Source of the DNA: an uncultured Nitrospiraceae bacterium
Lineage (GTDB): Bacteria; Nitrospirota; Nitrospiria; Nitrospirales; Nitrospiraceae
Direction: 5' to 3'
Assembly: GCA_963730935.1 (NCBI GenBank)
Contig: CAVSTP010000002.1
Coordinates: forward strand, 576,001-640,000
Length of the DNA stretch: 64,000 nt
Part shown: in pieces, positions 6,001 through 28,301 of the stretch
Layout of the letters: every line of letters begins with the position of its first letter
Numbering within the stretch: position 1 is the stretch's first letter
Made by a program: the position numbers and the translations under genes
The notes under the pieces: generated by a model
The model's database searches: none
Seen by the model: only the letters and a program-made list of their open reading frames with translations
What the model was told of the DNA's origin: nothing

Positions 6001-9000
6001 CGGGACCACGACCTTCGCCGGTCCAGTGGGCGGCGGCACGCCGCTCACGAGCCTCACGACCAATGCGGGCGGCACGACGGCCCTCAATGGCGGCGCCGTC
6101 ACCACCACTGGGGCACAAACTTATAATGATGCAGTCACTTTGGGCGCCGATACGACGCTCACGAGCACCGGCGCGGGGGCGATCACGTTGGGCAGCATCG
6201 TCAACGGCGCGCAGAGCCTGATCGTCAACACCATTGGCCTGACGACCTTCGCGGGCCCAGTGGGCGGCATCACGCCGCTCACGAGCCTCACGACCAATAC
6301 GGGGGGCACGACGGCCCTCAACGGCGGAACAGTCACGACGACGGGGGCGCAGACCTACAATGATGCGGTCACGTTGGGGGCGGATACGACGCTCACGAGC
6401 ACGGGCGCCGGCACGCTCACGTTAGGCAGCACGGTCAACGGCGCCCAGAGCCTGATCGTGAACACCACGGGCCTGACGGCGCTCATGGGCCCCATTGGAG
6501 GCACCACACCGTTAACGACGTTGACCACGAACGCGGGCGGCACGACCGATCTGAACGGCGGGACGGTGGTGACCACGGGCGCCCAGACCTATAACGATGC
6601 CGTGCTGCTCAGTGCCGACACGACGCTCACGGCGGGGGTCGGCAATATTACGTTTGGGAACACGGTCGACAGTACGGCGGGCAATACGTTTAGCCTGACC
6701 GCCAACAGCACGGGCACGACGACCTTCAGCGGCGCCGTGGGGACCACCGATGCACTCACGAGCCTGACGACCAACGCGGGGGGCACGACGGCCCTCAACG
6801 GCGGGACCATCACGACGACGGGGGCGCAGACCTACAATGATGCGGTCACGTTGGGGGCGGCCACCACGCTCACCAGTACCGGCGCGGGCACTATCACGCT
6901 GGGCTCCACCGTCAACGGCGCGCAGAGCCTCGCCGTCAATACGGCGGGCCTGACCACGCTGACCGGTCCCGTGGGCGGCGTCACGCCGCTCACCAGCGTG
7001 ACGACCGATCAGCCGGGCACGGTCACGGTGGGCAGCGTCACCACGACCGGGGCACAGAGTTATCAGGAGAATACGGTGAGCTTGAACGGCACCTACACCA
7101 CCACCAACAGCCCGGTCACCGTCGGCACCGCGGCCGCCGCGATCACGCTGGGTGGGAACACAACGGTGACGACCGGCGCCGGCAATATTCTCTTCAATGG
7201 CACGGTGGATGGCGCGCAGAGCCTGACCCTGAACAGTACGGGCACGACGACCGTCAGCGGGGCAGTGGGCGGCACGACGCCGCTCACGAGCCTCACGACC
7301 AATGCGGGCGGCACGACCGCGGTCAATGGGGGCAGCGTCACGACCACGGGCAACCAGAGCTACGGCGATGCCGTCACGATGAATCAAGCCACCACCTTCA
7401 CGACCACCGGCGGCGGCAGCAGCGTGAGCTTCGGCAATAACGTGACCAATACGTTGGCCGGGGCCTCCCTCACCGTGAATACGCCGGCCCTCAGTTTGGC
7501 CAACGGCAGCACGGTGGCGACCACGGGTAACGGCAACATCAGCTTTATCGTCGATGGCCTCACGCCCGGTACCGCCAGCATCAATGCGGGCACGGGCACC
7601 TTCCAGATCAGCCCCTCCACGCCGACCAAGACCATTGAGTACGGCGATGTGGATACGGCGCGCGTGACGGATGTCTATTACGGCTCGACGTTCACCAACA
7701 TTACCGCCGGCCAGTTCACGATCGGCGGGGCGACCCAGACGGGCGACATCTTTGTGACGGGCGTGGCCGCAGCCCCGGCCGCCACGACGCTGCAGACCAC
7801 CGGGACCGGCGCCGTCACCTTCGAGACGGCCCCCTATGTGACGGGCAATCTGGATCTGGGCGTCGTCAGTGGGAGCGGGGGCATCACGCTGGGCCAGAAC
7901 GTGACCCTGGGCACCGGGACGCTGCGGCTCACCACCACCGGCGCAATCACGCAGACTGGGGGCAGTCTCACGGCGGATCTCCTCGGCGCCTCGGCCGGCA
8001 CGAGCATCACGCTCAATCAGGCGGGCAACGATGTGAATGTCGTGGCCGCGCAAAGTGCGGCCGGCGGGATCACCCTGCGCGATAGCGACGATCTGGTCCT
8101 TGGTGCCGCGCCCGCGGTCGCCGGCCTGCATCCCGCGATCAATGGGCTCACCGCCCCCGGGCAAAGCGTGACCCTGACCACGGACGGCGCCTTGAGTCAG
8201 ACCCAGCCCATCGTCGCCGACAGTCTCACGGCCACGACGCTCAATAATGCGGGGGCCGCGATCACGCTGACCGATCCGGGCAATGCGGTCACCACCGTGA
8301 CGCTCCAGGCCCGCAATGCCGCCAATACGACCGATGCCGCCGGAGCCATTGCCTATCGCGATAGCGATGGCGTGGATATCGCCGGTGTGCGCACGACCAG
8401 TACCTTCGATCTCACGACCGCTGGGCCGATCACCAGTAGCGGCGCCCTGATCGTGGGTGGCACGACCACGCTCACCGCTGGCGCGGCCAACAACATCACA
8501 CTGAACAACGCCAACGACTTCAGCACGGTGAGCGTCGTGAGCGGCAACAACGTGACGCTCAACGATGTGAATGCCCTGGATCTCGGCGCCTCGACCATCA
8601 GTGGCGGGCTCACCGTCACCACCAATGGCGCGATTACGGATAGCGGCAATCTCACCGTGGCCGGCACGACGACCTTGGCGGCCGGGGCGGGCAACAACAT
8701 CACCTTGAATAACGCCAACGATTTCAGCACGGTCGCCATCACCAGCGGCAACACCGTCGTATTGAACGACATCAATGCGCTCGATCTCGGGGCTTCCACC
8801 ATCAGCGGCGGGCTCACCGTCACCACCAATGGCGCGATTACCGATAGCGGGAACGTGACCGTGGTTGGCACGACGACCCTCGCCGCCGGGGCGGGCAACA
8901 CCATCACGCTCAACAACGCGAACGACTTCAGCACCGTCAGTGTCGTGAGCGGCAACACCGTGACCCTCAACGATGTGAATGCCCTGGATCTCGGCGCCTC

Positions 9001-12000
9001 GACCATCAGTGGCGGGCTCACCGTCACCACCAATGGCGCGATTACCGATAGCGGCAATCTCACCGTGGTCGGCCCGACCACCTTGGCCGCCGGCGCCGGC
9101 AACAACATCACCTTAATAACGCGAACGACTTCAGCACGGTGAGCGTCGTGAGCGGCAACAATGTCGTGTTGAACGACATCAATGCGCTCGATCTCGGGGC
9201 TTCCACGATCAGCGGCGCGCTCTCCGTCACCACCAATGGCGCGATTACCGATAGCGGCAATTTGACCGTGGTTGGCCCGACCACCTTGGCCGCCGGCGCC
9301 GGCAACAACATCACCTTGAATAACGCCAACGACTTCAGCACCGTCAGCGTCGTGAGCGGCAACAATGTCGTGTTGAACGACATCAATGCGCTCGATCTCG
9401 GGGCTTCCACCATCAGCGGGACGCCTCACGTTACCACCAACGGCGCGATTACCGATAGCGGCAATTTGACCGTGGTTGGCCCGACCACCCTCGCCGCCGG
9501 CGCGGGCAACAACATCACCTTGAACAACGCCAACGATTTCAGCACCGTCAGCGTCGTGAGCGGCAACACCGTCGACGTTGAACGACATCAATGCGCTCGA
9601 TCTCGGCGCTTCCACCATCAGCGGGACGCTCTCCGTTACCACCAACGGTGCGATTACCGATAGCGGCAATTTGACCGTGGTTGGCCCGACCACCCTCGCC
9701 GCCGGGGCGGGCAACAACATCACCTTGAACAACGCCAACGACTTCAGCACGGTCAGCGTCGTGAGCGGCAACACCGTGACGCTCAACGATGTGAATGCGC
9801 TCGATCTCGGCGCTTCCACCATCAGCGGCACCTTGAGCATCACCACCAACGGGGCCATTACCGACAGCGGTGCGCTCAGCGTCGTGGGGACCACGACCCT
9901 CACCGCCGGGGCCGCCAACAACATCACCTTAAACAACGCCAACGACTTCAGCACGGTCAGTGTCGTGAGCGGCAACACTGTGGTGCTCAACGACGTGAAC
10001 GCGCTGGATCTCGGCGCCTCCACCATCAGCGGGGATCTGAATGTCACCACCGGCGGGGCCGTGACGCAGTCGGGCGCCCTGACCGTGGCCGGCAATGCCG
10101 CCTTCGATACCTCCGCCGCGGCCACCTTAGGCTCGGTGAGCTTCACCGATAGCAATGCGTTGACGTTGAACAACTCGCTGGTGGGCGGCAACCTGACCGT
10201 CACCACGGGCGCCGGCGATATCACGCTGCCCGCGGGCCAGACCCTGACGGTGGCGGGCAATATCACCTTGACCCCGGCCGGGGCAGTGGATCTACAAGGC
10301 ACCACCCAGATCGGCGGCACCCAATCCTATGTGGGCGGCACGGGCTCCACCTTTGTGCTCGGCGCGGATACCAATCTCAATACCTTGCCGTTGCCCGCGT
10401 CCGGCTCCGTCACGGTCAATACGACCGGCACCACCACGACCTTTGGCGGTCCGCCGATCCTGGGCCAAGCCATTGATCTCCCCCATGCCGGCAATAGCAT
10501 CGGCGGCACCGTGCGGTTTACCACTGCCGCCCCGGCCGTGACCGGCGCGACCCAAAACACCTATAACCTCACGCAGAGTGCTCCGGTCACCTTCAATCCC
10601 GGGCAAACCTTGACGGTCACGGACTTGGGCGGCACGGCCGGCAAGCGCGGCAATATCAGCCTGCCCAATGCCGCCAACACGTTCCAGGATGTGAATCTGC
10701 TCGGCGGCAATCTGGCCCTGACCGATAGCGGCCCGCTGAATATCGGCGCCACCGGCCTCAGTGCCAATGCCGGCACCACCAGCACGGGCACCCTCGCCTT
10801 GACCAGCACCGGGGCGATCACCCAGAGCGGCCCGATCACCGCGGCCGGCCTCACGACGCTTACGGCGGGCGCGGCCAACAACATTCTGCTCAATCACGCC
10901 GCCAACGACTTCAGCACCGTCAGTGTCGTGAGCGGCAACAATGTCGTGTTGAACGACATCAATGCGCTCGATCTCGGGGCTTCCACGATCAGCGGGACGC
11001 TCTCCGTTACCACTAACGGCGCGATTACCGATAGCGGCAATCTCACCGTGGTCGGCCCGACCACCTTGGCCGCCGGCGCCGGCAACAACATCACCTTGAA
11101 TAACGCCAACGACTTCAGCACGGTGAGCGTCGTGAGCGGCAACAATGTCGTGTTGAACGACATCAATGCGCTCGATCTCGGGGCTTCCACGATCAGCGGC
11201 ACCTTGAGCGTTACCACCAACGGCGCGATTACCGAGAGCGGCAATTTGACCGTGACCGGCCCGACCACCTTGGCGGCCGGGGCGGGCAACAACATTACCT
11301 TGAACAACGCCAACGACTTCAGCACGGTCAGTGTCGTGAGCGGCAATAATGTGGCGTTGAACGACATCAATGCCTTGGATCTCGGCGCTTCCACCATCAG
11401 CGGCGCCCTCACCGTCACCACCAATGGGGCGATTACCGAGAGCGGCAATTTGACCGTGACCGGCCCGACCACCTTGGCCGCGGGGGCCGGCAACAACATT
11501 ACCTTGAACAACGCCAACGACTTCAGCACGGTCAGTGTCGTGAGCGGCAATAATGTGGCGTTGAACGACATCAATGCCTTGGATCTCGGCGCCTCCACCA
11601 TCAGCGGCGCCTTGACCGTGACCACCAATGGGGCCATTACCGAGAGCGGCAATTTGACCGTGACCGGCCCGACCACCTTGGCCGCCGGGGCCGCCAACAA
11701 CATTACCTTGAACAACGCCAACGACTTCAGCACGGTGAGCGTCGTGAGCGGCAATAACGTGACCCTCAACGATGTGAACGCCTTGGATCTGGGCACCTCC
11801 ACCATCAGCGGCACCTTGAGCATCACCACCAATGGCGCGATCACCGACAGCGGTGCGCTCACCGTCGTGGGTCCGACCACACTGAGTGCCGGGGCGGGCA
11901 ACACCATCACGCTCAATAACGCGAACGACTTCAGCACCGTCGCCATCACCAGCGGCAACACCGTCGTGTTGAACGACATCAATGCGCTCGATCTCGGGGC

Positions 12001-15000
12001 TTCCACGATCAGCGGCACCTTGAGCGTCACCACCAACGGCGCCATTACCGATAGCGGCAATCTCACCGTGGTCGGCACGACCACCTTGGCCGCCGGCGCC
12101 GGCAACAACATCACGCTCAACAACGCGAACGACTTCAGCACCGTCGCCATCACCAGCGGCAACACCGTCGTGTTGAACGACATCAATGCGCTCGATCTCG
12201 GGGCTTCCACGATCAGCGGCACCTTGAGCGTCACCACCAATGGGGCGATTACCGAGAGCGGCAATCTCACCGTGGTCGGCACGACCACCTTGGCCGCCGG
12301 CGCCGGCAACACCATCACGCTCAATAACGCGAACGACTTCAGCACGGTGAGCGTCGTGAGCGGCAACAATGTCGTGTTGAACGACATCAATGCGCTCGAT
12401 CTCGGGGCTTCCACGATCAGCGGGACGCTCTCCGTTACCACTAACGGCGCCATTACCGACAGCGGCAATCTCACCGTGGCGGGCACCACGACCCTCGCGG
12501 CGGGCGCCGCCAACAACATCACGCTCAACAACGCGAACGACTTCAGCACGGTGAGCGTCGTGAGCGGCAACACCGTCGTGTTGAACGACATCAATGCGCT
12601 CGATCTCGGGGCTTCCACGATCAGCGGGACGCTCTCCGTTACCACTAACGGCGCCATTACCGACAGCGGCAATCTCACCGTGGCGGGCACCACGACCCTC
12701 GCGGCCGGCGCCGCCAACAACATCACGCTCAACAACGCGAACGACTTCAGCACCGTCGCCATCACCAGCGGCAACACCGTGACCCTCAACGACGTGAATG
12801 CTCTGGATCTTGGCCCTTCCACAGTGGGTACGACCTTGACCGTGACCACCGGAGGGCCGCTGACGCAGAGCGGGCCGATCCTGGTCCCGAATCTTGCGGT
12901 GACCAGCAACGGACCTGTCACTCTGACCAACCCCAGTAACGATGTTGATACCTTCGCAGCTCAAGTGAGCGGTGCAGGAAATGGCATCCAGATGACAGAT
13001 ATCGATAGTCTCACGGTAGGTACGGTGGGGGCACTTAGCGGGATCACCACAAACAATGGCGATATTGCGCTCATCACCGGTGGCGCACTCACCATCAATC
13101 AAGCCTTAGCGGCCGGCACGGCCAACGTGGGCTTAGATGCCGGCGGCGCCGTCACTCAAGGCGCGGCCGGCATCATCACAGGCAACGAACTGAATCTGCG
13201 TGGCTCCGGCCCATTCACGCTCACAAATGCGTCGAATGATGTGAACACCGTTGGAGCCACTACCACGGGGGCCATTCAACTCACCGACGTCGATGATCTC
13301 ACCGTGGGATCGGTCAACGCCGTGGGGACGCTGGCCGTAAGTAGCGGCATCACGGCGGCGGGCAGTGTGACGCTGACGACGACCAACGGTGGGGCACTCA
13401 CGATCGATCAGCCGATTACGACGACCACCAATGGCACGCTCACGCTGACCAATGCGGGCCTCTTAGCGCTTAATGCCAATCTCGATGCCGATGGGGCGAT
13501 CACCCAGAATGGGGCCGGGGCGATTACCACCACGGGCACCCGGACCGTCACCACGACCAATGATGCGGTGAATGTGACTCAAGCCGTCACGCTTGGCGGC
13601 GATCTCACGATCAGCACCGGCACAGGCCCGATTAGCTTTAATAGCACGATCAATGGCGGCGGCAATCTCACGGCCAATAGCACCGGGACCACGACCTTCG
13701 CGGGCCCAGTGGGCGGCATCACGCCGCTCACGAGCCTCACGACCAATACGGGGGGCACGACGGCCCTCAACGGCGGAACAGTCACGACGACGGGGGCGCA
13801 GACCTACAATGATGCGGTCACGTTGGGGGCGGATACGACGCTCACGAGCACGGGCGCCGGCACGCTCACGTTAGGCAGCACGGTCAACGGCGCCCAGAGC
13901 CTGATCGTGAACACCACGGGCCTGACGGCGCTCATGGGCCCCATTGGAGGCACCACACCGTTAACGACGTTGACCACGAACGCGGGCGGCACGACCGATC
14001 TGAACGGCGGGACGGTGGTGACCACGGGCGCCCAGACCTATAACGATGCCGTGCTGCTCAGTGCCGACACGACGCTCACGGCGGGGGTCGGCAATATTAC
14101 GTTTGGGAACACGGTCGACAGTACGGCGGGCAATACGTTTAGCCTGACCGCCAACAGCACGGGCACGACGACCTTCAGCGGCGCCGTGGGGACCACCGAT
14201 GCACTCACGAGCCTGACGACCAACGCGGGGGGCACGACGGCCCTCAACGGCGGGACCATCACGACGACGGGGGCGCAGACCTACAATGATGCGGTCACGT
14301 TGGGGGCGGCCACCACGCTCACCAGTACCGGCGCGGGCACTATCACGCTGGGCTCCACCGTCAACGGCGCGCAGAGCCTCGCCGTCAATACGGCGGGCCT
14401 GACCACGCTGACCGGTCCCGTGGGCGGCGTCACGCCGCTCACCAGCGTGACGACCGATCAGCCGGGCACGGTCACGGTGGGCAGCGTCACCACGACCGGG
14501 GCACAGAGTTATCAGGAGAATACGGTGAGCTTGAACGGCACCTACACCACCACCAACAGCCCGGTCACCGTCGGCACCGCGGCCGCCGCGATCACGCTGG
14601 GTGGGAACACAACGGTGACGACCGGCGCCGGCAATATTCTCTTCAATGGCACGGTGGATGGCGCGCAGAGCCTGACCCTGAACAGTACGGGCACGACGAC
14701 CGTCAGCGGGGCAGTGGGCGGCACGACGCCGCTCACGAGCCTCACGACCAATGCGGGCGGCACGACCGCGGTCAATGGGGGCAGCGTCACGACCACGGGC
14801 AACCAGAGCTACGGCGATGCCGTCACGATGAATCAAGCCACCACCTTCACGACCACCGGCGGCGGCAGCAGCGTGAGCTTCGGCAATAACGTGACCAATA
14901 CGTTGGCCGGGGCCTCCCTCACCGTGAATACGCCGGCCCTCAGTTTGGCCAACGGCAGCACGGTGGCGACCACGGGTAACGGCAACATCAGCTTTATCGT

Positions 15001-18000
15001 CGATGGCCTCACGCCCGGTACCGCCAGCATCAATGCGGGCACGGGCACCTTCCAGATCAGCCCCTCCACGCCGACCAAGACCATTGAGTACGGCGATGTG
15101 GATACGGCGCGCGTGACGGATGTCTATTACGGCTCGACGTTCACCAACATTACCGCCGGCCAGTTCACGATCGGCGGGGCGACCCAGACGGGCGACATCT
15201 TTGTGACGGGCGTGGCCGCAGCCCCGGCCGCCACGACGCTGCAGACCACCGGGACCGGCGCCGTCACCTTCGAGACGGCCCCCTATGTGACGGGCAATCT
15301 GGATCTGGGCGTCGTCAGTGGGAGCGGGGGCATCACGCTGGGCCAGAACGTGACCCTGGGCACCGGGACGCTGCGGCTCACCACCACCGGCGCAATCACG
15401 CAGACTGGGGGCAGTCTCACGGCGGATCTCCTCGGCGCCTCGGCCGGCACGAGCATCACGCTCAATCAGGCGGGCAACGATGTGAATGTCGTGGCCGCGC
15501 AAAGTGCGGCCGGCGGGATCACCCTGCGCGATAGCGACGATCTGGTCCTTGGTGCCGCGCCCGCGGTCGCCGGCCTGCATCCCGCGATCAATGGGCTCAC
15601 CGCCCCCGGGCAAAGCGTGACCCTGACCACGGACGGCGCCTTGAGTCAGACCCAGCCCATCGTCGCCGACAGTCTCACGGCCACGACGCTCAATAATGCG
15701 GGGGCCGCGATCACGCTGACCGATCCGGGCAATGCGGTCACCACCGTGACGCTCCAGGCCCGCAATGCCGCCAATACGACCGATGCCGCCGGAGCCATTG
15801 CCTATCGCGATAGCGATGGCGTGGATATCGCCGGTGTGCGCACGACCAGTACCTTCGATCTCACGACCGCTGGGCCGATCACCAGTAGCGGCGCCCTGAT
15901 CGTGGGTGGCACGACCACGCTCACCGCTGGCGCGGCCAACAACATCACACTGAACAACGCCAACGACTTCAGCACGGTGAGCGTCGTGAGCGGCAACAAC
16001 GTGACGCTCAACGATGTGAATGCCCTGGATCTCGGCGCCTCGACCATCAGTGGCGGGCTCACCGTCACCACCAATGGCGCGATTACGGATAGCGGCAATC
16101 TCACCGTGGCCGGCACGACGACCTTGGCGGCCGGGGCGGGCAACAACATCACCTTGAATAACGCCAACGATTTCAGCACGGTCGCCATCACCAGCGGCAA
16201 CACCGTCGTATTGAACGACATCAATGCGCTCGATCTCGGGGCTTCCACCATCAGCGGCGGGCTCACCGTCACCACCAATGGCGCGATTACCGATAGCGGG
16301 AACGTGACCGTGGTTGGCACGACGACCCTCGCCGCCGGGGCGGGCAACACCATCACGCTCAACAACGCGAACGACTTCAGCACCGTCAGTGTCGTGAGCG
16401 GCAACACCGTGACCCTCAACGATGTGAATGCCCTGGATCTCGGCGCCTCGACCATCAGTGGCGGGCTCACCGTCACCACCAATGGCGCGATTACCGATAG
16501 CGGCAATCTCACCGTGGTCGGCCCGACCACCTTGGCCGCCGGCGCCGGCAACAACATCACGCTCAACAACGCGAACGACTTCAGCACGGTGAGCGTCGTG
16601 AGCGGCAACAATGTCGTGTTGAACGACATCAATGCGCTCGATCTCGGGGCTTCCACGATCAGCGGCGCGCTCTCCGTCACCACCAATGGCGCGATTACCG
16701 ATAGCGGCAATTTGACCGTGGTTGGCCCGACCACCTTGGCCGCCGGCGCCGGCAACAACATCACCTTGAACAACGCCAACGACTTCAGCACGGTGAGCGT
16801 CGTGAGCGGCAACACTGTGACGCTCAACGATGTGAATGCGCTCGATCTCGGCGCTTCCACCATCAACGGCGCCTTGAGCGTCACCACCAATGGCGCCATT
16901 ACCGATAGCGGGAACGTGACCGTGGTTGGCCCGACCACCCTCGCCGCCGGCGCGGGCAACAACATCACCTTGAACAACGCCAACGACTTCAGCACCGTCA
17001 GCGTCGTGAGCGGCAACACCGTCGTGTTGAACGACATCAATGCGCTCGATCTCGGGGCTTCCACCATCAGCGGGACGCTCTCCGTTACCACCAACGGTGC
17101 GATTACCGATAGCGGCAATTTGACCGTGGTTGGCCCGACCACCCTCGCCGCCGGGGCGGGCAACAACATCACCTTGAACAACGCCAACGATTTCAGCACC
17201 GTCAGCGTCGTGAGCGGCAACACCGTGACGCTCAACGATGTGAATGCGCTCGATCTCGGCGCTTCCACCATCAGCGGCACCTTGAGCATCACCACCAACG
17301 GGGCCATTACCGACAGCGGTGCGCTCAGCGTCGTGGGGACCACGACCCTCACCGCCGGGGCCGCCAACAACATCACCTTAAACAACGCCAACGACTTCAG
17401 CACGGTCAGTGTCGTGAGCGGCAACACTGTGGTGCTCAACGACGTGAACGCGCTGGATCTCGGCGCCTCCACCATCAGCGGGGATCTGAATGTCACCACC
17501 GGCGGGGCCGTGACGCAGTCGGGCGCCCTGACCGTGGCCGGCAATGCCGCCTTCGATACCTCCGCCGCGGCCACCTTAGGCTCGGTGAGCTTCACCGATA
17601 GCAATGCGTTGACGTTGAACAACTCGCTGGTGGGCGGCAACCTGACCGTCACCACGGGCGCCGGCGATATCACGCTGCCCGCGGGCCAGACCCTGACGGT
17701 GGCGGGCAATATCACCTTGACCCCGGCCGGGGCAGTGGATCTACAAGGCACCACCCAGATCGGCGGCACCCAATCCTATGTGGGCGGCACGGGCTCCACC
17801 TTTGTGCTCGGCGCGGATACCAATCTCAATACCTTGCCGTTGCCCGCGTCCGGCTCCGTCACGGTCAATACGACCGGCACCACCACGACCTTTGGCGGTC
17901 CGCCGATCCTGGGCCAAGCCATTGATCTCCCCCATGCCGGCAATAGCATCGGCGGCACCGTGCGGTTTACCACTGCCGCCCCGGCCGTGACCGGCGCGAC

Positions 18001-21000
18001 CCAAAACACCTATAACCTCACGCAGAGTGCTCCGGTCACCTTCAATCCCGGGCAAACCTTGACGGTCACGGACTTGGGCGGCACGGCCGGCAAGCGCGGC
18101 AATATCAGCCTGCCCAATGCCGCCAACACGTTCCAGGATGTGAATCTGCTCGGCGGCAATCTGGCCCTGACCGATAGCGGCCCGCTGAATATCGGCGCCA
18201 CCGGCCTCAGTGCCAATGCCGGCACCACCAGCACCGGCACCCTCGCCTTGACCAGCACCGGGGCGATCACCCAGAGCGGCCCGATCACCGCGGCCGGCCT
18301 CACGACGCTTACGGCGGGCGCGGCCAACAACATTCTGCTCAATCACGCCGCCAACGACTTCAGCACCGTCAGTGTCGTGAGCGGCAACAATGTCGTGTTG
18401 AACGACATCAATGCGCTCGATCTCGGGGCTTCCACGATCAGCGGGACGCTCTCCGTTACCACTAACGGCGCGATTACCGATAGCGGCAATCTCACCGTGG
18501 TCGGCACGACCACCTTGGCCGCCGGCGCCGGCAACAACATCACCTTGAATAACGCCAACGACTTCAGCACGGTGAGCGTCGTGAGCGGCAACAATGTCGT
18601 GTTGAACGACATCAATGCGCTCGATCTCGGGGCTTCCACGATCAGCGGCACCTTGAGCGTTACCACCAACGGCGCCATTACCGAGAGCGGCAATTTGACC
18701 GTGACCGGCCCGACCACCTTGGCGGCCGGGGCGGGCAACAACATTACCTTGAACAACGCCAACGACTTCAGCACGGTCAGTGTCGTGAGCGGCAATAATG
18801 TGGCGTTGAACGACATCAATGCCTTGGATCTCGGCGCTTCCACCATCAGCGGCGCCCTCACCGTCACCACCAATGGGGCGATTACCGAGAGCGGCAATTT
18901 GACCGTGACCGGCCCGACCACCTTGGCCGCGGGGGCCGGCAACAACATTACCTTGAACAACGCCAACGACTTCAGCACGGTCAGTGTCGTGAGCGGCAAT
19001 AATGTGGCGTTGAACGACATCAATGCCTTGGATCTCGGCGCCTCCACAGTGAGTAGCACGCTGACGGTGACGACCGGCGGCGCCCTGACCCAGAGCGGGA
19101 CGGTGGTTGCCCCCAATCTGGCCGTGACCAGCAGTGGCCCCGTCACCTTGACCAATGCGGCCAATGATTTCGATACCGTGGCGTTCCAAGTGGCAGGCGC
19201 GGGCAACGGCGTACAGCTCACCGATGTCGATGGCCTCACGGTGGGCACGGTCGGCGCGGTCACGGGCATCACCGCCGCCGGCAATGTGGCGCTGACGACG
19301 ACCAACGGCGGGGCGCTCACGATCGCTCAACCGATCACGACCACCAACACCGGCACCCTCACGCTCACCAATGCCGGCACGCTGGCGCTCAATGCCAATC
19401 TCGATGCCGATGGCCCGATCACGCAGAACGGGGCAGGCGCGATCACAGCGACCGGCGCCCGCACGGTCACCACGACCAACGATGCGGTGACCTTGACGCA
19501 AGGCCTCACCTTGGGCGGCGATCTCACGATCAGCACCGGTACGGGCCCGATTGCTTTCAACAGCACCGTTAACGGCGGCGGCAATCTCACGGCCAATAGC
19601 ACCGGTACCACCACCTTTGCCGGCGCGGTCGGCGCCGTCACGCCGTTGACCTCACTCACGACCAATGCGGGCGGGACGACCGCCCTCAACGGCGGCACGG
19701 TCGTGACGACGGGCGCGCAGACCTACATTGATGCGGTGACGCTCGGCGCGGATACGACGCTGACCAGCACGGGCGCGGGCGCGATCACCCTGAACGGCAC
19801 CGTCAACGGCGCCCAGAGCCTGACCGTGAACACCGCGGGCGCCACGACCTTGGCCGGCCCGATCGGCGGCGGCACGCCGCTCACCAGCGTCACGACCGAT
19901 CAGCCGGGCATCGTTACGGTGGGGAGTGTGACGACGACCGGGGCGCAGAGCTATCAGGAGAATACGGTCAGCTTGGGCGGCACCTATACGACCACCAATA
20001 GTGCGTTCACCGCGGGCACGGCCGCGGCCGCGGTGACGTTGGGCGGCGCCACGACCATCACGACCGGCACCGGCACGATTCTCGTCAACGGCACTATTGA
20101 TGGCGCCCAGAGCCTGACCCTCAATAGCACCGGCACGACGACGCTCGCCGGCGCGGTGGGCGGCACCACGCCGTTGACCGCGCTCACGACCAATGCGGGC
20201 GGCACCACGGCCGTGAACGGCGGCAGCGTCACCACGACCGGCAATCAAACCTATGGCGATGCCGTCACGATGAATCAAGCGACCACACTCACGAGTACGG
20301 CTGGAACCGTGCAGTTCGACAATACGGTCACGAACTCCGTCGGCGGCGCCAGCATTACAGTGGATGCCCTGACGATTACCTTGAATGCCGCCACGACGAT
20401 GGCGACCACCAATGGCAACCTCAGCTTCTTTACCGATACGCTCAACACGAATGGCGCAAGCATCAATGCCGGCACCGGCGCCTTTGCGATTGCGCCCAGT
20501 ACCGTGACGAAGACGATTGAATTCGGCGATGTGGATACCGCCCGCACGACCGATGTGTACTACAGCTCCAACTTCGGCAGCATCGTGGCCGGAAGCTTTA
20601 CGGTCGGTCGTCCCGCTCAGACTGGAGATATTTTTGTCACCGGCGTGGCTAGCTTGACGACACCACTCACGGTCATCAACGGAGGGACCGGTGCTCTGAC
20701 CGTAGAAAACGCGGCTCTCACGAGTCCGAACAACAGCTCTGTGGGTCTTGTCAGCGGGTCCGGTGGGACGACCTTGGCTGCCGATGTGAACGTCGGCACC
20801 GGTACATTGCGGATCACAAGCACAGGCGCCATTGCTCAAAGCGGGGGAGCAATTACGGCCGATACACTTGCTCTGGCCGCAGGAACCGGCATCAACGTTG
20901 CGCAAGCCGGAAACGATGTCACAACACTCGCCGCTCAGACGGCAGTAGGTGGATTGGCCTTCCGCGATAGTGACGGCTTTATCATTGGCAGCATCGTGGC

Positions 21001-22207
21001 CAGCGGCGACGGGTTCCATCCGGCCATCACCGGTCTCAACGCCGGCGTTTCGGATGTGGCCTTGTCCGCTGGCGGACCAGTGACGCAGACCGCACCTATT
21101 AATGCCGGTGGACTGAGCCTTCAGGGAACTGGTCCCTATACGCTGACTCACGGTGCCAACGACGTTGAAACGATCGCGGCCAACACCACGGGAACCATTG
21201 AGTTCACCGACGTCGATGATCTCACCGTTGGCGCTGTGGCCGCAGTCGGCACGATCCCGGCCTCCGGCGGCCTCACCAGCGGCAACAACGATATCGCCCT
21301 CATCACCGGCGGGGCCCTCACGCTTAATCAGGCCGTTAATGCCGGTACGGCCGATGTGGGCTTGCAGGCCAATGGCCCCGTCACTCAAGGCGCGGCCGGC
21401 AACATCACCGCCAATGAACTCAATCTCCGCGGCAGCGGGCCCTTCACGCTCACGAACAATGCCAATGATGTGAACACCGTGGGCGCAACCGTCACCGGCA
21501 CGCTCCAGCTCACCGACGTCGATGATCTCACCGTTGGCGCTGTGGCCGCAGTCGGTACGATCCCGGCCTCCGGCGGCCTCACCAGCGGCAACAACGATAT
21601 CGCCCTCATCACCGGCGGGGCCCTCACGCTTAATCAGGCCGTTAATGCCGGTACGGGCAACATAGGGATTGCGTCGGGAGGATCCACGACTCAAGGTGGA
21701 GCCGGTCAATTAACGGGAGATAATTTGAATCTCCAAGGCAATGGACCATACGTCCTGACGAATCCAAATAACGACATCAACACCGCCGGCGGAACCGTGT
21801 TGGCTTCTCTCGTATCGATTGCCGACATCAATGGCTTCACGGTTGGTAACGTGCCGGCGGTGGGGACGTTACCGGCCGCCGGACCGTTCCCAAACGCTCC
21901 ACCATCTATTTTCGCAACCGTCGGCGGCCGCGGACTCTTGCAGGGGGTGGAAAGCACATTCGTTTACTTGAACCCGGAAACATTCATTCCCCTTTACTAT
22001 CCTTTCGGCCATCCAATGTTGGGATGGACAATCCGGAGTGTCACATCACTGTATGTGCCTACCACTCCGCTCAATTTGCCCTTGTTTGACAACAGGGCCT
22101 CCGGGACGCAATCGGTTGGTGGTTCTGGAAGTTGTGGTGAGCGATCCGGCGAGAAGGAAGACCAATCGGCGCCCAGAGGCGGCTGTGAGGAGGGCGTCAT
22201 TAAGTAG
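2..22207 (+). CDS. Giant repetitive filamentous-haemagglutinin-like (TpsA-type) surface adhesin, 5'-truncated by the window edge, at least about 7,400 aa; interrupted by compensating -1 (~9114) and +1 (~9574) indels
   Basis: ORFs 11..9142 and 9578..22207 are in the same frame, and 9139..9663 continues the same 68-aa repeat in a shifted frame. The duplicate copy 7,449 bp downstream is uninterrupted. T/G/A/N-rich beta-strand repeats throughout; the frame is open to the window start. Confidence 0.85.
2290..5337 (+). repeat. Tandem array of about 5 near-identical 621-bp (207-aa) units in the adhesin; more diverged copies at ~1-2290
   Basis: Identical antisense ORFs recur at 2434, 3673, 4294 and 4915 (period 621 bp; 618 bp across the indel-ridden copy starting at 3055). 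Confidence 0.95.
6242..11598 (+). repeat. Copy 1 of a ~5.36-kb near-identical internal duplication
   Basis: 6242 aligns to 13691 and 11581 aligns to 19030, a constant offset of 7,449 bp; identical antisense ORFs occur at that offset (6512/13961, 10327/17776). Confidence 0.95.
8504..19047 (+). repeat. Four blocks of 204-bp (68-aa) tandem units NNANDFSTVSVVSGN...GAGNNITL (about 8, 10, 8 and 4 unit starts)
   Basis: Unit starts at 8504, 8708, 8912 and so on; blocks at ~8504-10020, ~10893-12815, ~15953-17470 and ~18342-19047. Confidence 0.9.
13691..19047 (+). repeat. Copy 2 of the ~5.36-kb internal duplication
   Basis: Matches 6242..11598 at an offset of 7,449 bp. Confidence 0.95.
21204..21656 (+). 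repeat. Two near-identical ~147-bp copies (21204-21350 and 21510-21656, offset 306 bp) near the adhesin 3' end
   Basis: TDVDDLTVGAVAAVGTIPASGGLTSGNNDIALITGGALTLNQAVNAGT is repeated with near-identical DNA. Confidence 0.9.
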
Positions 22208-22365
22208 TTATGCATAGCTGATCGATGCGAAAGACAGACTCTAGAGACCCAATTGCCTTTATAAGACTATGATTATATTAGTAGTTTTTGGTATTTTCTC
22301 CTCCATCCTTCCGTAGCCCCTCTTCAGGGCAATGCGCTTTTCCTGAAATCTGCGACACTTTTAGT

Positions 22366-23622
22366 ATGGACAGGATCGATCACAGACCGGCCCTACGCCC
22401 TGCCATACGATTATGTCCTACACAAATAGGTGTGGTTTGGATCATCACACTCACCCTCGCTATGGGGGTGCTGACCACAACGGCCGCCGCTCAGGATCAA
22501 TCCGAGCATCGCACGATTCTTAACCAGAAGAGTTTCTCATTCGTCGTCGACGAGATTAGTCGGTTACTGGGGCCGAGGGAGCAGCCTATTGCCTTGCACC
22601 GGGTCATCGGGATCGACCAGTCGCTGACAATGAGTCAACTCTCGAAGGACAACCGACTGGTTGTGATCAATCCTCATCGAGTGTTATTCGCCGATTTTGG
22701 ATTCGTCGATACGGGCGAATTCCTGGCGACCACGTTGCGGGTCCGTGGCAGCCGCGACGCCAAGGCTGCCGTCAGCACCAGTACCGTCCGCGTCTCCGAA
22801 CACGGATATATTGCATTGATGACACCTGGTGTCACAACCGAAGCCGTCGTCATTGCAGCCGTGAGCACGGCACCATCGGATGCTGAACAGAAGATCCTGT
22901 TTGATTTCATGAGCGATGGCCTCATCCGGTATGCCATCGGGGAAAGCGAACTGAATCACTTCACCGGGGTCGATGGAAAGGCCTTGATCAAGGCCTCATC
23001 TGACGGAGAGCGGCTCGAAGCTGGCTCCGGGCAGATGTTGATGAATGCCAGGTCGGCCGCCGACATCCAACGGTCCGTGATGAATATCGGCAATGTCACT
23101 CGTGCTCGACGCTTGGTGGTTGAAAACAGCTCAATCCGACTTGAGGGAGAGAGCCCACTTGCGGCGAGCGTGAGGCGGCCAAGCAGCTCGCTCTCCCATG
23201 AAAATGCAAGCAGCAAACCCCTTCACAAGGAGCTTGAAAACAAGGCGGCTCAAGCGGATATAGCCACCGCGAAGGTCAGTCCCATGTCATCGAGCTCAAA
23301 TCACGATGCGCTGCATACGTCTGACAACAAGGGTACACCTATGAACAGCACGTCTCTCCTGCACAAGCGGTTGCAGAGTCGGCCACCAGCTGTAGCGAAC
23401 AAACCCCTCCCACGATCCAGGGAGTCCACACTTCAGCAAGCCGGCCGAACCGAAGGCAAGAGCGGAGCAAAAGGCAAAATGAAAGCCCAAAAGTCGACCC
23501 CTCACGCACGAGCTCAGCAACCACCGTCTGCGCTGTCGATCCCTCATCAGCCGGTTCTGCCGGATTGGATGAAGTATCTTCCGAAGAGTGAAGGCACCAC
23601 TGACAATCCAGCGGTCCCCTAG
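22366..23622 (+). CDS. Exported protein with a degenerate filamentous-haemagglutinin N-terminal (TPS secretion) domain and a disordered basic C-terminal tail
   Basis: Hydrophobic signal-like stretch ending AAA-QD. LHRVIGIDQSLTMSQLSKDNRLVVINPHRVLF...VDTGEFLATTL parallels the TPS consensus LNRVtG.dpS.I.G.l.anG.v.liNPNGilF...v.vgg.lAsTl. ATG 22366 preferred over TTG 22288. Confidence 0.7.
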   Translation: MDRIDHRPALRPAIRLCPTQIGVVWIITLTLAMGVLTTTAAAQDQSEHRTILNQKSFSFVVDEISRLLGPREQPIALHRVIGIDQSLTMSQLSKDNRLVVINPHRVLFADFGFVDTGEFLATTLRVRGSRDAKAAVSTSTVRVSEHGYIALMTPGVTTEAVVIAAVSTAPSDAEQKILFDFMSDGLIRYAIGESELNHFTGVDGKALIKASSDGERLEAGSGQMLMNARSAADIQRSVMNIGNVTRARRLVVENSSIRLEGESPLAASVRRPSSSLSHENASSKPLHKELENKAAQADIATAKVSPMSSSSNHDALHTSDNKGTPMNSTSLLHKRLQSRPPAVANKPLPRSRESTLQQAGRTEGKSGAKGKMKAQKSTPHARAQQPPSALSIPHQPVLPDWMKYLPKSEGTTDNPAVP

Positions 23623-23636
23623 CGATCTACCACGGG

Positions 23637-24134
23637 TTACGTGAACCGTCGTACCTGCTCGTTGAGGATTTGAGCAATCATGGAAGTGTCGAACGGCCAC
23701 GCGTATTGGATCGAGACTTCCGGATGTCTCGCTCTCACGCCATGAAGTATTTCCGGAATCTCGATCTCCGAATGGGCGCCCCCGGGTGTGAACATCGTGG
23801 TCGCCACGGTGATGCGAGTCGCGCCTTGCCTGATGAGGTCTTCGATCGATTCCTCCACACTGGGGGCGCAGAATTCGTTGTAGGCTAACGCAAAGAGAGC
23901 GCCATCCAGCAGCGGCCGCAAAGCGGCGCCGACCGCTTCCAACCCAGCTCGATAGGGATCAGTGGCGGCCGTCCTTGGCCACTGGCGGATGGTGGCGTCC
24001 AGTTCCCGTTCTTCGGCCGACGGAGGTGTGCCGGCAGCGCGCCGTTGGGCCTCTAAGCGTTTAAATTTGCTGACGAGTTCAGCCGGACAATCCTTCGCAA
24101 TGCCCCCGTGACCGACCAATACCACGCCACGCAT
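23637..24134 (-). CDS. CbiX/SirB-family short sirohydrochlorin chelatase-like protein
   Basis: N-terminal VVLVGHG, AYNEFCAPSV and TMFTPGGAHSEIEIP motifs typical of the CbiX/SirB domain. Confidence 0.8.
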   Translation of the reverse strand: MRGVVLVGHGGIAKDCPAELVSKFKRLEAQRRAAGTPPSAEERELDATIRQWPRTAATDPYRAGLEAVGAALRPLLDGALFALAYNEFCAPSVEESIEDLIRQGATRITVATTMFTPGGAHSEIEIPEILHGVRARHPEVSIQYAWPFDTSMIAQILNEQVRRFT

Positions 24135-25149: not shown

Positions 25150-26025
25150 GGCAAGACTGTGATAAGGCTCAACGTAGGCAGGCCGCTCTTGATGACTCCC
25201 TGCACGTGCGATCCACACTCTCAACAATCAGTATAGACCTCGCGTGCGCCGTCTTCATCCTGTTTGCTATACGATCGAATCCGATGCGAAGCCACGGGGG
25301 GGGTGTGTTACTACGTCCAACGCGGGGGCGGACTAGGAGGAAGGAAGCAGATGTGCTCAGCGCGGCCGGGAGAGCCGATTTGGCTGGGTGATAGATTTCG
25401 CTTGTGGCTGCGAATTTTGTCCGCAGCGGCATACCTCAGTAATAGACGTAGCGTTTCGTATCGCGTTTCGCTAGGAGTTCCTAATGCTCCTTGGGCTCTT
25501 GACTAATTAAGGTTCCCCTTCCACTGCAGCTTGTTCTTAAGACTGACTCCTGCTTTGCACGAGCGTTGCGGCGATCGCTCTGAAAATGGTCTGCTGGTCA
25601 GGTACGTCTATCTTTGCCTGCCCCTCACGGGTAGTAGTCCAAGCATCATTTAACAGAGCTCCCGATTGAGCCACGCTGCTCGTGCTTTCGCTTGCGCCCT
25701 AGCACGCTGTCCTTGAAACCAATAAACGCCGGCGACAATAATTACAAAGTATGGTGAGCAGATTCATCGCAGCCGTAGCTAAAACTTTTGGCAGATTGTA
25801 CTCCGGTACGTCTGAAAGCTCACCACTACTTCAAGCAAGTCCCTGTGAAATGTGATCCCTTCTTATTTAGGAAAACGCTAGAACTATCCAACGAGCTACG
25901 GGGGCTTCGAATTTAATCATATAGTTAGCGGCCCCTAATCTACTGGTGTCAAGAATTCCCCCCAACCGTAGGGGGCGAGACAGACATCCTTGACATCCCT
26001 AAGTCGTGGGAATACGTTCCCAAGG

Positions 26026-26841
26026 ATGTCCAGCAAGGGACTGCCTGCTGCAATCCGTCAGATGCTCTCGCCGCTTGTCCGCATCCTACTTCGCAATGGG
26101 ATGGCGGCCAAGTCGTTCTATGAATTGGCGAAAGAAACCTACGTGGCGGCGGCGCGCGATGAATTCGGGATCGGCAAGAAGCAGGCTACGATATCGCGCA
26201 TTGCCATCCTCACTGGGCTGACACGCAAGGAAGTACAAGCGCTACTCGACACGCCTGCTCGGAGAGATGAAGGGTTTATAGACGAATACAATCGCGCGGC
26301 TCGTGTGATTACCGGATGGCTCCGTGATCCGGATTTTGGAGATGGGAAAGGTCATCCACTTCCGCTCCGCATGATTGGGAAGCGACAGTCCTTCGGCGCG
26401 CTGGTCAAACGCTACAGCGGGGACATCCCTGTCCGAGCCATGCTCGATGAACTCGTGCGCGTGGGAGCTGTGAAGCAGTTAAAGGACGGTCGAATCGGGC
26501 TAGCGGTGAGAGGGTATGTCCCGCAGAAGGGCTTGGATCAAAAGTTGGCCATTCTCGGACAGGACACGGCCGACCTCATCGCGACGATCGACCATAATGT
26601 GCACGGAAACCCGTCCTCTCCCAGAATGCAACGAAAGGTGATGTACGACAATGTCCCGTTGGAATCGGCTAAGGCATTCCAGGCAGTCGCTCAGGCGCGT
26701 GCCCAAGAAATGCTTGAGGCGCTGGATCGCTGGCTTTCCCATCGCGACCGGGATGTCAATCCGACGGTCAAGGGCAAGGGACGGCTTAGGGTGGGACTGG
26801 GTGTGTACCATTTCGAAGAACGGCTCGATCAGGACGAATAA
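26026..26841 (+). CDS. DUF6502 family protein
   Basis: LSPLVRILLRNG, ISRIAILTGLTRKEV, ARVITGW, F.ALV..YS.DIP.RAMLDELVR.G and IATIDHN motifs. Confidence 0.8.
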   Translation: MSSKGLPAAIRQMLSPLVRILLRNGMAAKSFYELAKETYVAAARDEFGIGKKQATISRIAILTGLTRKEVQALLDTPARRDEGFIDEYNRAARVITGWLRDPDFGDGKGHPLPLRMIGKRQSFGALVKRYSGDIPVRAMLDELVRVGAVKQLKDGRIGLAVRGYVPQKGLDQKLAILGQDTADLIATIDHNVHGNPSSPRMQRKVMYDNVPLESAKAFQAVAQARAQEMLEALDRWLSHRDRDVNPTVKGKGRLRVGLGVYHFEERLDQDE

Positions 26842-28301
26842 TGTATCTCCAGGGCGCCAAACGATTCCTGGCCTTGACCCTGCCTTGCTTGGCTTTTGTT
26901 TCGTGCGGCCCTAGCCCTCAGGCGGGTGGCGGTATTGGGGGAACCGGCTCCGTTTCAAGCGTCTCCTCGGGACCGGTGACCAAGCTGGGCAGCGTGTATG
27001 TCTCTGGGACGCAATACGACAATTCCAATGCCTTCTACTGTATCAACGACGAGCCCTGCACCACGGAGAACAGCCTGAAACCCGGTATGGTTGTAGAGGT
27101 CCAGGGAATGGCGCAATCGTCGGATCAGGGTGCAGTGACCCGCGTGGCCAACACAATTACCTTCCAAGACGCCGTGGAAGGGGTCGTACAATCTGTCGCC
27201 CAGGACGGGTCTAGCCTAATCGTGCTTGGGCAATTGGTCACACTGAACCCAAAAACGGTGATCGACGCCAGTATCCCCGGCTTATCTATTCGCAACCTCA
27301 CGCCAGAACTTGATGTAATCGAGGTCAGTGGACTGGTCGTGAGCGACGGCCATATTCTAGCTACCTTGATTATGAAGCGCACAGGCAAGCCGCAGTATGA
27401 AGTTCAGGGCGTCATCAAGAACCACGATGGGGCAGGTAGACGGTTCCAAATCGGACAACTGATGGTAGAGTACTCTTCTGCAGACGTCAGTGCCATCACA
27501 GCTGGCGGCGCCGCGAATTGGAACAACCAGGTCGTCCATGTACACGGAGACGCGTGGCAACCGGGCAGCGAAGCGCCTTATGGGGGCACGCTCCGGGCCA
27601 CGAAGGTTAAGCCACTGAGCCTCACGGTCGAAGACAGCGCCGAGGCAAAACTAGAAGGCTTCATCACCAACGTGACGCAGTTAGGCGCCTTCACAATCAA
27701 TAACCATCCAATCGAAGTATCATCCGCGACAGCGTTCGAAGGCGGCACGGCAAACGAGCTCGTCCTCGGCACGCATGTGTTCATCCATGGAGCGCTGGCA
27801 CGCGGAGTATTGGGTGCTCAACAAGTCATCTTCAAAGAAAACCTTCAAATGGAGTCGAATGTCGGATCGATCGACCTTCAATCCCTTACTCTGACCCTAA
27901 CCGGTCTGCCGGGCCTCTCGATTGAAGCTGATGCTCGAACCCAGATTGAAAACGGAGGCACCGTCATCCGCCTTGAGGAAATTCGGATTGGCGACCACCT
28001 CAAAATCCACGGGAAACTGCTCGATGGCAACCGCATAGTCGCGACCGAACTAGAGCGGACAGGCCCCTCTACCACCATCGTGCTAGAAGCGCCTTTGCAA
28101 TCGGCGATTGATCCCCGGATCCTGTTAGCTGGTGTGAATATCGAGACGTCAGGGATTCCAGAGAACGGATTTGTAGGGAATTACGGGCCAATTGGACGCA
28201 AGACATTCTTTGAGAAAGCCCTGACAGGGCGGCCAGTATGGGCCGAAGGAACTCTTACGGGTAGCAACGTGACCTGGAGCAGTGTCGGCATCCGTAGATA
28301 G
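26841..28301 (+). CDS. Lipoprotein with repeated DUF5666 domains
   Basis: Lipobox-like FVSC followed by GGGIGGTG, GPVTKLGSVYVSG, LKPGMVVEVQG and repeated EG.V/I..v modules; start overlaps the upstream stop (TAATG). Confidence 0.8.
   Translation: MYLQGAKRFLALTLPCLAFVSCGPSPQAGGGIGGTGSVSSVSSGPVTKLGSVYVSGTQYDNSNAFYCINDEPCTTENSLKPGMVVEVQGMAQSSDQGAVTRVANTITFQDAVEGVVQSVAQDGSSLIVLGQLVTLNPKTVIDASIPGLSIRNLTPELDVIEVSGLVVSDGHILATLIMKRTGKPQYEVQGVIKNHDGAGRRFQIGQLMVEYSSADVSAITAGGAANWNNQVVHVHGDAWQPGSEAPYGGTLRATKVKPLSLTVEDSAEAKLEGFITNVTQLGAFTINNHPIEVSSATAFEGGTANELVLGTHVFIHGALARGVLGAQQVIFKENLQMESNVGSIDLQSLTLTLTGLPGLSIEADARTQIENGGTVIRLEEIRIGDHLKIHGKLLDGNRIVATELERTGPSTTIVLEAPLQSAIDPRILLAGVNIETSGIPENGFVGNYGPIGRKTFFEKALTGRPVWAEGTLTGSNVTWSSVGIRR

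Follow-up and report, generated by a model that had tools for sequence, protein, structure and literature searches.

Two-partner secretion (TPS) draws on no energy source, and no dedicated regulator that acts at the transporter has been described. According to the sections of a 2017 review drawn on here (PMC5422565), POTRA domains bind extended, amphipathic, unfolded segments of the TPS domain, export is considered to be driven by folding at the cell surface, the smallest unit to be secreted is a TPS domain of about 250 aa and there are TpsBs that serve several substrates; the signal that TpsB recognizes was called imperfectly defined. The same sections describe template-assisted folding in trans by isolated TPS domains (N-terminal fragments of ShlA and HpmA). 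The first Asn of the NPNG motif was reported, in the text available, to be essential for secretion of FHA and ShlA (PMC10284417), and FhaC secretion is said, in the part of the preprint drawn on, to be blocked by a designed peptide, P1, predicted to bind in the POTRA1 groove (bioRxiv 10.64898/2026.01.11.698920). The glycosyltransferases HMW1C and EtpC, HxuC, CdiI, BcpO, CdiC, SphB1 and LapG are each, like the protein described here, encoded by a third gene of a two-partner locus. Unlike the latter, none of the additional components listed in section 9 of the review is a TPS-domain paralogue (PMC5422565).

The gene in question lies in a 64,000-nucleotide stretch of DNA from an uncultured Nitrospiraceae bacterium (the whole stretch is referred to as the window). 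Its product resembles the TPS domain of TpsA proteins of the HMW1/HxuA/EtpA type in a homologous region of ~220 aa, a signal peptide and a location in a tpsB–tpsA locus. Unlike these proteins it has neither a passenger nor a Cys hook, carries NPHR in place of NPNG, ends in a disordered linker and a short tryptophan-containing motif (the W-motif), has a domain that lacks the cap strands and one extra-helical segment, and falls below the Pfam and TIGRFAM cut-offs. Orphan tpsC and cdiA-CT cassettes are also partial copies of tpsA downstream of tpsA, and in the portion of the review consulted they are 3′ toxin modules for recombination (PMC5422565), whereas the window gene is a 5′ copy with ~34% identity that has its own signal peptide and upstream block. 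The cassette explanation was rejected for this 5′ copy at 34% protein identity; blastn found no match longer than 300 nt between the gene and the adhesin. The HpmA265 and ShlA fragments share with the window protein that an isolated TPS domain would act in trans on full-length TpsA, but they were engineered with an intact fold, whereas fold-determining residues are eroded here. The H1 helix and linker that plug TpsB, and peptide P1, are alike in a proposed occupation of the substrate site of TpsB (PMC5422565 and bioRxiv 10.64898/2026.01.11.698920, both as far as drawn on). H1 and the linker act in cis and P1 is synthetic, whereas the window protein would be a natural, trans-encoded and substrate-derived occupant. 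The literature searched, which lay mostly outside subscription journals, yielded neither an account of a TPS-domain paralogue that stands alone in a TPS locus nor a TPS study in Nitrospira. We regard the gene as representing a real, apparently undescribed family of accessory type, the mechanism of which is considered below in conditional terms.

The gene, its locus and its relatives

The gene (22366–23622, + strand) encodes 418 aa from its ATG without internal stops, in a reading frame that is open already from 22288, and begins 158 bp behind the adhesin stop codon (end at 22207). This agrees with an earlier note on this DNA, which had described an intact ORF of ~418 aa about 160 bp behind the adhesin on the same strand, and every peptide quoted there is found in the translation. 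What had been called a signal-like hydrophobic stretch is a predicted Sec signal peptide (residues 1–42, 22366–22491, + strand), with an h-region and an AxA-type site after residue 42 (cleavage between AAA and Q) recognized by hydropathy only; a hydrophobic signal region is present in all 16 family members examined. A conserved GCGACACT element (22355–22368) lies 6–7 nt ahead of the start codon, where no Shine–Dalgarno sequence is evident. RNA contigs from four runs gave two 151-nt pieces (depth 2, from one run) that span 22212–22514 and leave the remainder of the gene uncovered.

Upstream, the giant TpsA adhesin is read in two frames on the + strand. The 5′ frame (2–9142) starts upstream of the window at C2:572933, and the N-terminus, 3 kb upstream of the window, has a canonical NPNG TPS domain (PF05860, 125 bits); the 3′ frame (9578–22207) is an open reading frame of 4209 aa. 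The adhesin gene measures ~25 kb in all, or about 8,400 aa. The two frames are split by −1 and +1 indels near 9113 and 9570, 450 bp apart and both within near-identical repeats, which are likely to be assembly errors because the net frame is restored. The cognate tpsB (C2:570824–572668, with ShlB and POTRA_2 domains) lies directly ahead of the adhesin, outside the window. The convergent cbiX (23637–24134, − strand) forms a right border that is conserved with or without the gene. Beyond it, at 25990–28301, lie a DUF6502 gene and then a DUF5666 repeat lipoprotein-like gene, and elsewhere in the genome (G000:C4:28800-35200) there is a second TPS system, consisting of a tpsB-like gene and a TpsA that appears fragmented, with a gene for a TPR-like exported protein beside them.

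The family has about 30 known members. A word-indexed search gave 23 proteins among 8000 scored, of which 19 are 48–92% identical to the window protein, most over near full length, and four, about 500 aa long, belong to a subfamily that is less eroded; searching 1.84 billion representatives with a profile brought further members, as did a second seed. Database labels are ‘hypothetical’ or ‘filamentous hemagglutinin family’. A quick tree of 115 TPS domains placed all 28 family rows in a single clade (SH-aLRT 100), which sits on a long stem and is nested among the TPS domains of Nitrospiraceae adhesins. Orthologues thus exist, and the gene stands directly behind the adhesin in all seven loci that could be compared (the window, G030 and 5/5 metagenomic loci), with cbiX convergent at its 3′ side in six; the contig of the seventh stops first. 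Among 371 genomes of the bacterial family, in a survey that scored the best four candidates per genome and included many incomplete genomes, the gene was found in only three (G000, G030 and G082, the last with the same sequence as locus L037), and 55 others gave adhesin-type matches only. All 21 other Nitrospiraceae loci covered to the end of the adhesin carry the tpsB–adhesin pair and lack the gene (cbiX being in reach in 20), and in G300 only 85 bp separate the adhesin tail from cbiX. The gene is therefore lineage-specific and, as it is found in only 3/371 genomes, optional. The proposal of a third component of TPS loci holds in so far as a conserved extra gene is concerned, but not for a general component of such loci. 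In several genomes the adhesin is followed immediately by an incomplete second copy of cbiX (L085 15490–15827, L090 11285–11506 and L095 7128–7271), which marks the adhesin–cbiX junction as prone to duplication and insertion.

Two features of the partner proteins were compared between carriers and non-carriers. The C-terminal segment of the adhesin (21947–22204, + strand) is of a subtype with …LGWTIRSVTS…PLFDNR and a wide Cys pair, and this PLFDNR subtype occurs in 7/7 carrier loci, across both gene subfamilies; the aligned segments from the 21 non-carrier loci all lack it. G368 and G300, the adhesins of which are nearest the source of the family, are non-carriers without it. The Cys pair itself (window 22130–22204) resembles a periplasmic disulfide anchor; it is tight in most non-carrier loci (five residues between), wide in most carrier loci (about 16–28) and absent in L037. 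Complex prediction with the mature window protein and the last 86 residues of the adhesin returned ‘no answer’ (score 0.00). N-termini of TpsB could be read in 26 of the 31 loci tried. POTRA1 begins about ten residues behind the signal peptide in 21, and the other five (G000, G030, G082, G006 and G368) have a long acidic extension of 65–95 aa, rich in Pro, Ser and Glu. Judged from sequence, these 26 TpsBs, including that of G000 (L115), appear to have no usual H1 plug helix or linker, since their N-termini offer neither the room nor the composition for it. The acidic extension is not strictly tied to the gene, since G368 has the former and lacks the latter.

Erosion, selection and origin of the TPS-derived domain

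Residues 43–262 (22492–23151, + strand) form a TPS-derived domain, as indicated by homology, the tree, column counts and dN/dS. The window protein alone matches PF05860 (E 0.032, 14.6 bits, cut-off 33.5) and TIGR01901 (E 0.097, 12.6 bits, cut-off 29.1) below the family thresholds, although the similarity suspected in the earlier note is real: 23/27 members match one of these models at E≤1, the less eroded relative P0171 clears the cut-off with 56.3 bits, and a profile of 27 members reaches EtpA (E 4e-17), HMW1 (2odl, 3e-10) and HxuA (4e-7) in the PDB. Alignment with the N-terminus of the adhesin itself, upstream of the window, gave 33.7% identity over 243 aa (tblastn, E 7e-40). Fold prediction was of low confidence, with pLDDT 33.5 for the full-length protein (27 family rows) and pLDDT 54 and pTM 0.33 for the best model of the domain (115 rows); with this low-confidence domain model Foldseek gave EtpA at E 0.62 and nothing at E≤0.001, and VIA-align gave HxuA at Z 3.3 and nothing at Z≥5.

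Erosion of the domain is selective. In the window's subfamily hydrophobic columns are retained at 46/59 positions versus 10/26 for Gly/Asn columns, in keeping with the noted loss of many consensus Gly and Asn residues, and N-x-G ladder motifs number 1.0 per domain versus 7.0 in the adhesins. The counterpart of NPNG is NPHR, at residues 102–105 (22669–22680) where it had been placed; N102, P103 and H104 are each at least 90% conserved in the family, so the first Asn is retained, and NPHG is present in four other TpsA-like matches (506–946 aa). Relative to the adhesins, the N-terminal cap strands are deleted in the window's subfamily and eroded in the other one. The window's subfamily has also deleted a 14-aa extra-helical segment, has lost the aromatic W and has fixed G>N96, N>H104, G>R105, G>E118, G>S183 and G>N243. 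Altogether 29 changes are fixed at columns conserved in the adhesins, and the stem branch is long. The segment DFMSDGL of the extra-helical hairpin varies little, if at all.

In place of a passenger there is, as the earlier note had seen, a disordered tail: a low-complexity linker of about 135 aa (23152–23556, + strand), rich in S, P, T, A and K and basic in its distal half, with no long repetitive β-helical passenger. Its length and charge are conserved (134–139 aa in 16/19 members of the window's subfamily, no Cys, distal net charge +6 to +12) and its sequence is near neutral. The linker ends at a motif that had been overlooked, LPDWMKYLP (residues 398–406, 23557–23583, + strand), a predicted short amphipathic helix with a helical moment of 0.63. 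In the consensus LP[ED]W[MI]xxLP the residues L398, P399, W401, L405 and P406 are invariant in 20/20 members; the counterpart in the other subfamily is WRQPKWNF. The motif was not found elsewhere in the genome of the window, the tail had no match in Pfam and nothing usable in ESM Atlas, and a weak search for fused longer forms of the family gave only two distant ordinary TpsAs.

The TPS-derived domain is under purifying selection that is weaker than that on the cognate TPS domain. Over 15 pairs from six loci (Nei–Gojobori; the pairs share loci and are not independent) dN/dS of the domain was 0.09–0.41, mostly 0.15–0.2 at dS 0.2–2, the highest value being that of the window–G030 pair, compared with 0.55–1.0 for the linker and with control values of 0.10–0.17 for cbiX, 0.10 for tpsB and 0.03 for the TPS domain of the adhesin. 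Fisher tests on window pairs were significant for the domain (p 0.009 to 3e-22; 1e-20 against L034) and not for the tail, and none of 2000 neutral simulations at 0.42 substitutions per site remained stop-free. There are disrupted copies. That of G082/L037 has one stop, intact alleles existing in the same cluster, and among the matches listed 48/57 cluster members reach the C-terminal motif, the other nine being fragments that carry frameshifts (four), records of that split gene (three), a tail with a frameshift (one) and a truncated record (one). Assembly error is a plausible cause of the disruptions because the G030 adhesin is also heavily frameshifted. With dN/dS far below 1 and disrupted copies in a minority, a pseudogene or decaying duplicate, the outcome against which the earlier note had asked for dN/dS, was rejected.

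The origin of the gene is a 5′ partial duplication of a Nitrospiraceae tpsA that included the upstream control block. In the less eroded subfamily the first 62–98 residues of the linker match, in the same frame, the coils that come next in adhesins of the G368/G339/G300 type (E about 1e-13), a subtype different from the present adhesin of the window; such homology to adhesin coils as was found is in frame, and an out-of-frame origin of the tail was rejected. A block at 22306–22361 (+ strand), conserved in seven loci, is homologous to a block upstream of Nitrospiraceae adhesin genes and would function as a promoter or 5′-UTR. A matrix from adhesin upstream regions (trained without the genome of the window, seeded by eye and post hoc) scored 16.9 at L036, 11.8 at L037 and 2.4 at the window, scores matched by 0, 6 and 200 positions, respectively, out of 8.09 million in the genome. 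In an nhmmer profile of adhesin upstream regions the upstream region of the gene ranked third in the genome, not significantly (E 0.34); a σ70 scan gave no sites, no + strand terminator was found between adhesin and gene, and Rfam gave no match at gathering level. Between tpsB and the adhesin lies a conserved block of ~56 nt, often with a perfect TATAAT (for example in L061, L068 and L045), and may represent, throughout the family, an internal promoter that carries a regulator site. What followed the duplication we read as erosion and gain of the terminal motif.

What the protein may do

Our preferred though tentative reading, which takes up the decoy or plug of the earlier note and which we regard as possible rather than probable, is that the protein is a lineage-specific accessory factor of the tpsB–adhesin (type Vb) locus, a competitor or plug that tunes export or retention. 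The gene would be co-regulated with the adhesin and its product exported by Sec to the periplasm. There the TPS-derived domain would keep the amphipathic strands that POTRA binds and would lack the turns needed for folding of a β-helix at the surface, so that it could bind the cognate TpsB without productive pull-through. As a competitor or trans-encoded plug it would then tune how far the adhesin, of roughly 8,400 aa, is exported or retained, with the linker of roughly 135 aa as a spacer and the amphipathic W-motif as a tether to the membrane or a partner. The single clade, the selection on the domain, the 7/7 synteny and the upstream block in common with adhesins argue for such a factor, as do the conserved signal peptide, linker length and W-motif. 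The retention of hydrophobic over Gly/Asn columns fits the binding of unfolded amphipathic segments by POTRA domains given in the sections of the review used (PMC5422565), the block of FhaC secretion by a POTRA1-groove peptide, in the part of the preprint drawn on (bioRxiv 10.64898/2026.01.11.698920), offers a parallel, and the 26 TpsB N-termini appear from their sequences to be without an H1-like plug. However, most loci, including those of TpsBs also without H1, run the tpsB–adhesin pair without the gene, which is thus not required for it. The domain came from an adhesin of the G368/G339 type and not from the subtype of the present neighbour, selection on it is much weaker than the 0.03 of the cognate domain (0.41 for window–G030), and there are disrupted copies (the G082/L037 stop and the frameshifted fragments).

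The retention of the first Asn of NPNG, reported as essential, also counts against a plug, and together with NPHG in four other TpsA-like matches it speaks against calling the protein secretion-incompetent, as the earlier note did. The same two observations would suit a mini-TpsA, in which case the same TpsB would export the protein as a second, small substrate, and its basic disordered tail (distal net charge +6 to +12) and W-motif might attach to polyanions of the matrix, to the cell surface or to the adhesin; ~250 aa of TPS domain make up the smallest unit that is secreted, and multi-substrate TpsBs exist (PMC5422565, in the sections used). We consider this somewhat unlikely, as the window's subfamily has lost cap strands, aromatic W and turn glycines, with the Gly of NPNG changed to Arg, and export is thought, in those sections, to be driven by folding at the surface (PMC5422565). 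If the target were instead the periplasm-retained C-terminus of the adhesin, the protein might regulate anchoring or release by analogy with the CdrA and HMW1 tail systems. The restriction of PLFDNR to carriers (7/7 versus 0 among the aligned segments of 21 non-carriers), its persistence across both subfamilies and its lack in G368 and G300, nearest the source, point in this direction, but carrier loci are related and shared descent alone may account for the co-occurrence, so we rate such a role as unlikely. The long stem and 29 fixed changes might reflect a new periplasmic role unrelated to secretion, the gene staying beside its parent by inertia in a neighbourhood that cbiX synteny shows to be stable anyway; as it is never found away from the adhesin (7/7) and has kept an adhesin-type upstream block, this seems quite improbable. 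Slow decay without current function would explain stepwise erosion between the subfamilies, a near-neutral tail, some disrupted copies and a patchy distribution, and is nevertheless largely refuted, and in our view very unlikely, given domain dN/dS far below 1, 0/2000 stop-free simulations, the invariant C-terminal motif (reached in 48/57 members listed) and the conserved linker length. A folding template in trans, also suggested in the earlier note by analogy with the ShlA and HpmA fragments, has the precedent of isolated TPS domains (PMC5422565, in the part drawn on) and the nearly invariant DFMSDGL hairpin in its favour, but a template would need a stable β-helix and the domain has lost its cap strands and most of its turn residues, which makes it hardly credible.

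Taken more broadly, it is quite conceivable, if still short of probable, that the protein is a natural trans-encoded regulator of TPS, a non-folding mimic that would plug or compete at an H1-less TpsB or clamp the periplasmic tail of the adhesin and so set display versus release. If this is true, the mimic, derived from a substrate, would have no natural predecessor among TPS regulators at the transporter in the literature searched, and the contrast between the strands kept and the turns and cap dropped would amount to an experiment of nature in which the recognition signal for TpsB is separated from the folding signal. The two subfamilies record stepwise erosion from a β-helix to a spacer with a new terminal motif, and such a regulator would bear on attachment in nitrifying biofilms.
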